Below are positions 1,783 to 2,020 of a stretch of 5,257 nucleotides of DNA, one piece after another. The notes beneath the pieces were generated by a model that saw only the letters and a program-made list of their open reading frames with translations, was not told the origin of the DNA and ran no database searches. Where the stretch lies: NCBI RefSeq assembly GCF_003334385.1, contig NZ_QOWN01000082.1; one strand, given 5' to 3'. The position numbers and the translations under genes were made by a program. Numbering within the stretch: the stretch's first letter is position 1; each line of letters begins with the position of its first letter. This stretch comes from Escherichia coli (lineage in GTDB: Bacteria; Pseudomonadota; Gammaproteobacteria; Enterobacterales; Enterobacteriaceae).

Positions 1783-2020
1783 CACATCCCCGTCAATACG
1801 GCCCTCGCTGTACGCTTACTTTTGTTCGGACTGCTTATGGCCTTTTTCCACTGGTGGCGCAGGAAAGTTAACCGGCTGCCACCATGGGATGACGTGTAAA
1901 CCGTGCAGGCATGTTTTCACGTGGTGACGCTTTCATTGGGGGTCTACGCCGGAACCCCAATATTGTTCACATACATGAATTTGAAAAACTAAGCGATACT
2001 GCTGTCCGTACCTTATAAAC

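Follow-up and report, generated by a model that had tools for sequence, protein, structure and literature searches.

Positions 1798-1819 of the analysed stretch of Escherichia coli DNA (5,257 nt of contig NZ_QOWN01000082.1, assembly GCF_003334385.1, hereafter the window) are very probably the right terminal repeat of a defective ISEc8 copy that ends at 1819 and is followed by a scrap of plasmid DNA, in which an imperfect inverted repeat derives from coding sequence and whose junction with the element would reflect a past exchange of flanks. The first-pass annotation had proposed an IS66-type right terminus here and had left the inverted repeat to either the element or its insertion target. The features on which the argument relies are the following, with the type of evidence in brackets.

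1-1819, plus strand: right-hand 1819 nt of an ISEc8 copy, IS66 family (identity to annotated loci)
1-347, plus strand: tnpB, encoding the IS66 accessory protein, its start codon straddling the left edge of the window (RefSeq, L001 6000-6347; NCBIfam)
397-1782, plus strand: tnpC, IS66-family transposase gene with an in-frame internal deletion of 153 bp (BLASTP, NCBIfam, Pfam, DNA breakpoints)
1798-1819, plus strand: right terminal inverted repeat of ISEc8, ACGGCCCTCGCTGTACGCTTAC (18/22 pairing with the left repeat)
1820-1899, plus strand: 3' remnant of a DUF6404-family gene, the final 80 of its 348 nt, ending in LFGLLMAFFHWWRRKVNRLPPWDDV* (RefSeq; plasmid alignment)
1846-1889, plus strand: extended bulged hairpin of 16 pairs that contains both arms of the inverted repeat (RNA folding of 1840-1896)
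1848-1858, plus strand: left arm, CCACTGGTGGC, codons His-Trp-Trp-Arg, CAC TGG TGG CGC (sequence inspection)
1878-1888, plus strand: right arm, GCCACCATGGG, codons Leu-Pro-Pro-Trp-Asp, CTG CCA CCA TGG... (sequence inspection)
1900-1937, no strand assigned: rest of the plasmid-derived fragment, a 17-nt spacer and the tail of a convergent gene (plasmid alignments)

The ISEc8 copy and its right end

ISEc8 is a member of the IS66 family that was first described in E. coli O157:H7, with the ORFs L0013, L0014 and L0015. The whole copy to which the window belongs measures 2289 bp in the matching genome (L001 5531-7819), its first 470 nt, comprising the left end and tnpA, lying upstream of the window. 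The order tnpA-tnpB-tnpC, taken from the RefSeq annotation of the identical locus, is shared with ISEc8, as are terminal repeats starting with GTAAGCG and ending with CGCTTAC. Compared with the O157:H7 copy annotated as 'IS66-like element ISEc8 family transposase', which served as the reference, DNA identity amounts to 99.4% over 2068 nt and 99.1% over 226 nt. The window copy differs from ISEc8 in its length, 2289 bp versus 2442 bp, through the deletion in tnpC, and in its surroundings, as it lies between two flanks of unrelated origin without an 8-bp target duplication.

Both genes in the window were recognised by NCBIfam, TnpB with 105.7 bits against a cut-off of 50 (IS66_TnpB) and TnpC with 355.9 bits (transpos_IS66), a score above the cut-off that is split into two stretches. 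The window TnpC comprises 461 aa versus 512 in the intact protein, the latter being the published length of ISEc8 ORF3, L0015 (PMC2762410). The deletion junction lies near 1596-1600, and in the intact sequence the pentanucleotide CTGTT is present at both edges of the deleted 153 bp. Alignment with the intact ISEc8 TnpC by BLASTP left a single gap of 51 residues at positions 401-451 (LSRHSELAKAFAYALNQWPALTYYANDGWVEIDNNIAENALRAVSLGRKNF), including the motif DNNIAENALR; this gap falls inside the Pfam domain DDE_Tnp_IS66 (PF03050), which spans residues 175-461 of intact TnpC, so that the catalytic domain is incomplete and the copy is a defective member of its family. Since 51 residues are gone from the catalytic domain, the window copy is probably not mobile by itself.

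The right end could be delimited by several lines of evidence. The left repeat GTAAGCGTACAGCCTGAACCGT (L001 5531-5552) and the right repeat (L001 7798-7819) are complementary at 18 of 22 positions, a match far above chance, and the pair constitutes the best long-range inverted repeat in L001. Published features of the IS66 family include terminal repeats of 20-30 bp starting with GTAAGCG and direct repeats of 8 bp (PMC11946415, citing Ross et al. 2021); the terminal repeat of the window copy conforms in both length and start, and the same GTAAGCG and CGCTTAC ends are common to the ISEc8 copies L009, L010 and L011. When window 1720-2020 was used as query, the other ISEc8 copies among the matches listed aligned from 1720 up to 1819, a few of them to 1823, and in a mirror search with the left end other copies began to align at L001 5531, two of them 1-3 bases earlier. 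A sister copy of 2442 bp inserted in lutC/ykgG (L011) is bounded by a perfect 8-bp duplication, GTTCAACG, that directly flanks GTAAGCG on one side and CGCTTAC on the other. Given the terminal repeats, the loss of similarity in other copies, the duplication around L011 and the published family features, the element ends at 1819. The right terminus that had been proposed from the window alone was thus correctly recognised, and its CGCTTAC had been placed exactly, at 1813-1819. The comparison with the left end that had been suggested for defining the terminus did yield a terminal inverted repeat, of 22 nt, whereas the 8-bp duplication expected along with it is absent from the window copy.

The same observations bear on the idea that the inverted repeat downstream lies inside the IS66-family element, either as part of a longer terminal repeat or as a subterminal transposase-binding site, with the true end past 1888. 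The one point in its favour is the distance of about 30 bp between the repeat and the canonical tip. Against it, other ISEc8 copies share nothing past 1819-1823 among the matches listed, the duplication of L011 abuts CGCTTAC directly, the left end holds no counterpart of the repeat and its match with the right end stops at 22 nt, and the homologues of the DNA at 1820-1937 are plasmid genes without an adjoining IS. Assignment of the repeat to the element terminus is thereby refuted, the terminal repeat and the similarity to other copies both stopping at 1819, and a location inside the element has practically no probability left.

Two minor observations concern the element ends. A terminator-like consensus match at 1797-1812, found in a scan of 1700-2100, lies inside the true terminal repeat and has a stem of chance-level quality. 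An ISEc8 copy of E. coli O157:H7 TB21-1 (L007 655-3100) is bracketed by TTAAAAAA in the manner of a target duplication, but its left tip, GCGTACAG..., is without the first four bases, GTAA.

Plasmid-type DNA at the right flank and origin of the junction

From 1820 onwards, alignments identify the DNA as a 118-bp scrap of F-type plasmid backbone and not as IS sequence. Plasmid DUF6404 genes with 87-94% DNA identity aligned, among the matches listed, only over window 1820-1937; for the gene tail proper, 1820-1899, DNA identity to the plasmid genes is 88-94%. In the IncF plasmid L002, which carries an intact DUF6404 gene (2287-2580), the last 80 nt of the gene align base for base with window 1820-1899, and the DNA 3' of the gene aligns with 1900-1937. 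The full gene measures 348 nt in other plasmids, the ISEc8 junction corresponding to nt 268. RefSeq annotates the remnant as a pseudogene, 'DUF6404 family protein, missing N-terminus', of 78 nt (window 1822-1899); it has no start codon and is devoid of about 89 N-terminal codons. Its C-terminal 25 residues differ from the plasmid counterpart, ...LFGLLMASFHWWRRKVNRLPPWDDV*, by one substitution (24/25 identical). The remnant was assigned to DUF6404 by 93% DNA identity together with these 24 of 25 residues, a stretch of 25 residues being too short for Pfam alone, and the intact plasmid protein matched Pfam PF19942 (DUF6404) with 8.1e-28 over model positions 19-114. The window therefore resembles the DUF6404 gene of F-type plasmids (ybaA in one plasmid record) in its 3' DNA and C-terminus, but it keeps no more than the gene's tail, as a pseudogene. 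On the minus strand, 1917-1937 holds the stop and the last six codons of a gene that in plasmids runs convergently towards DUF6404 (as annotated at L004 1595-2185 and L018 700-1290), and the plasmid similarity ends at 1937. The alternative assignment of the inverted repeat, to the insertion target, consequently holds in so far as the repeat lies in flanking DNA, but not in the sense of a simple target, as this flank is what remains of the 3' part of a plasmid-type DUF6404 gene.

Some information on the gene itself was collected from other records. In F-like plasmids of Klebsiella and Pluralibacter (L012, L013, L015), representing the Klebsiella type of F plasmid, DUF6404 is located directly downstream of finO, and in two E. 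coli plasmids (L016, L018) it adjoins colicin immunity genes. The DUF6404 3' end also survives as a second and independent relic in the chromosome of E. coli O6:H16 (L003 2988-3114), where the right arm of the repeat carries a TGG to TAG change and the relic is cut by an IS1 end at the equivalent of window ~1932. A literature search retrieved no paper mentioning DUF6404, and NCBIfam gave no family for the protein.

The 8 bp immediately outside the two ends of the window copy (AAATAGTG at the left end, TTTTGTTC at the right end) match at 1 of 8 aligned positions, so that the target duplication seen around the sister copy L011 is missing here. With the sister copy retaining it, this lack points to a later rearrangement and does not constitute evidence against membership in IS66/ISEc8. 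In strains without the IS, the left flank runs on uninterrupted as AAATAGTG|CAAATAACC... (or AAATAGTG|CAAATAACCG...), and it forms part of a CP4-like island with zinc-ribbon and YagK/YfjJ-type genes. The missing duplication, an island at the left and plasmid-type DNA at the right indicate that the copy joins two unrelated DNAs. A simple, intact insertion of ISEc8 into an ordinary chromosomal target, its 8-bp duplication present but unrecognised, would be in keeping with the duplications that are normal for the IS66 family (PMC11946415; L011). It is at odds, however, with the agreement of AAATAGTG and TTTTGTTC at a single position, with the different continuation of the CP4-like flank in IS-free strains and with a right flank that is the tail of a plasmid-type gene, and it is accordingly extremely improbable.

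For the junction of two unrelated DNAs we infer the following order of events. On a plasmid-like molecule, nt 268 of DUF6404 would have been the insertion site of an ISEc8 copy, whose left flank would then have been swapped for DNA of a CP4-like chromosomal island, either through homologous recombination of an ISEc8 copy in the island with the one in the plasmid DUF6404 gene or through an IS-mediated deletion. Such a swap would remove both the first 268 nt of DUF6404 and the target duplication. The copy has been passed on, as a fixed junction, to a large part of E. coli. The reciprocal junctions were found in none of 5,426 complete E. coli genomes, neither that of the DUF6404 5' part with the ISEc8 left end (synthetic 140-nt query, at least 80% coverage) nor that of the ISEc8 right end with the AAATAGTG island (synthetic 145-nt query).

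The inverted repeat and the surrounding hairpin

The right arm of the inverted repeat had been located correctly, while the left arm occupies 1848-1858 and not, as first given, 1849-1859. The two arms are complementary at 9 of 11 positions and separated by 19 nt. Counting repeats with 11-nt arms, at least 9 matches and a loop of 3-40 nt, the window contains 52 against 29.4 +/- 10.6 in dinucleotide shuffles, and the inverted repeat as originally described is not beyond chance. It lies inside the DUF6404 reading frame, where the Trp-Trp codons TGGTGG face Pro-Pro-Trp, CCACCATGG; the repeat arises because TGG TGG, encoding Trp-Trp, is the reverse complement of CCA CCA, encoding Pro-Pro. It is thus a by-product of the codons and neither a transposase site nor a terminator nor a structured RNA, and it gives no sign of function.

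The hairpin around the two arms was considered as a possible functional structure of the plasmid backbone, such as a stabilising hairpin at the 3' end, a processing site or a recognition site for a protein or for ssDNA, its persistence in IncI plasmids lacking the ORF being then a mark of selection. Several properties speak for this. Its RNA fold reaches -23.5 kcal/mol (z = -2.8) and exceeds shuffled sequences moderately in stability, 1 of 200 of them being equally stable, with the folded stretch 1840-1896 picked post hoc. A 45-nt segment is identical, or one base off, in IncF genes, in ORF-less IncI relics and in the second chromosomal relic, while the upstream flank in IncI and the downstream flank of type B diverge around it, and the IncI relics keep energies of -23.3 to -23.7 kcal/mol.

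Other properties count against it. Among all the E. coli-type sequences the stem does not vary and so offers no covariation or compensatory change, the invariant block overshoots the hairpin by 16 nt and runs through the stop codon, and the divergence of the flanks resembles two alleles of a neighbouring gene plus a recombination breakpoint. Equally stable hairpins, moreover, occur in ordinary coding DNA of the window: when 57-nt stretches were folded every 5 nt, 7 of 1041 reached -23.5 kcal/mol or below, at four other places, all of them in IS66 genes. The orthologues on F-like plasmids of Klebsiella and Pluralibacter (50-56% protein identity) have the motif LW...PDW (CTGTGG...CCTGACTGG), and their equivalent stretch folds with -4.7 to -12.5 kcal/mol, the hairpin being absent. 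Similarity to a Rho-independent terminator or structured RNA is limited to an imperfect, G+C-rich hairpin that lies close to the 3' end of a gene and, in plasmids, separates two convergent genes. It differs from these in its absence from the orthologues and in every specific mark: the stem is followed by GATGACGTG on the plus strand and by AAAAAGGCC on the minus strand, neither of which is a U-tract; no site was called at 1846-1889 when both strands of 1700-2100 were scanned for promoters and terminators; and a search of the entire window, both strands, against Rfam gave no match at E<=1. Taken together, these results make a functional backbone hairpin very unlikely. The more specific proposal, that the 44-nt hairpin 1846-1889 was selected in the backbones of enterobacterial conjugative plasmids, acts on RNA or ssDNA between convergent genes and became a chromosomal passenger beside ISEc8, is most unlikely.

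In IncI plasmids an ORF-less relic of the DUF6404 3' end is present (L004 1501-1637, L005 1501-1639, L017 601-693), with the hairpin segment unchanged and the flanks different. In an alignment of eight sequences, the downstream differences resolved into two allele types of the neighbouring gene, and the upstream difference was limited to the IncI lineage. The overshoot of the invariant block, the two allele types downstream and the confinement of the upstream difference to IncI speak against selection for a structure, and the pattern of conservation is best explained by recombination mosaicism. Among the IncI sequences listed, similarity to the IncF gene starts at gene position 218, within ~3-5 nt of the point of contact between ISEc8 and the relic; this proximity could be a coincidence or a shared breakpoint.

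Two further repeats were observed nearby. An inverted repeat with 9/11 matches at 1892-1922, whose arms begin at 1892 and 1912, covers the stop codons of both DUF6404 and the convergent relic. At 1935-1961, exactly where the plasmid similarity stops (1937), a 10-nt inverted repeat, ATTGGGGGTC / GAACCCCAAT, encloses a 7-nt loop, ~60 nt past the stop of the minus-strand gene for a phytase-like protein.

Chromosomal locus, distribution and neighbouring genes

The chromosome of E. coli O104:H4 2011C-3493, in which tnpA, tnpB and tnpC are annotated, matches window 1-2020 with 99.9% identity, and thousands of further E. coli records match the same part. The annotated order in O104:H4 is tnpA, tnpB, tnpC, the DUF6404 pseudogene, a convergent phytase-family gene, IS remnants and fecI-fecR-fecA. 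The ISEc8-DUF6404 junction, counted when at least 80% of window 1720-2020 was covered, occurs in about 40% of the complete E. coli genomes (2,163 of 5,426), and the left junction in 1,715 genomes. The same ISEc8-DUF6404 junction, with the phytase-like gene, is also found on an IncHI1B plasmid (L006).

Public records already contain the element and the pseudogene together with their annotation. The analysis establishes precisely where a defective ISEc8 copy ends on its right, which is of small importance beyond correct annotation, and reads the neighbouring DNA as a plasmid-gene relic, in agreement with the RefSeq record. The junction without a duplication may be regarded as the trace of an old event, upstream of the fec iron-uptake locus, in which plasmid-type DNA was joined to island DNA through an IS; it is usable as a lineage marker and reveals no new mechanism.

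The gene downstream of the relic is annotated as 'esterase-like activity of phytase family protein' on the minus strand at window 2021-3379, its longest ORF extending to 3394. It is almost always linked to the DUF6404 relic in E. coli (2,170 genomes), and its product of 457 aa had no NCBIfam match. Beyond it lies a patchwork of IS remnants (3661-3792, 3875-4005, 4727-4825 and 5115-5257), among which RefSeq distinguishes a C-terminal piece of the IS3 family, an IS5/IS1182 piece and a second IS3 piece. The last remnant, 5115-5257, is an IS1 end that runs off the window, with 98.6% identity to L003 3115-3257, under an annotated IS1 transposase; within this IS1 end RefSeq annotates ykiE.
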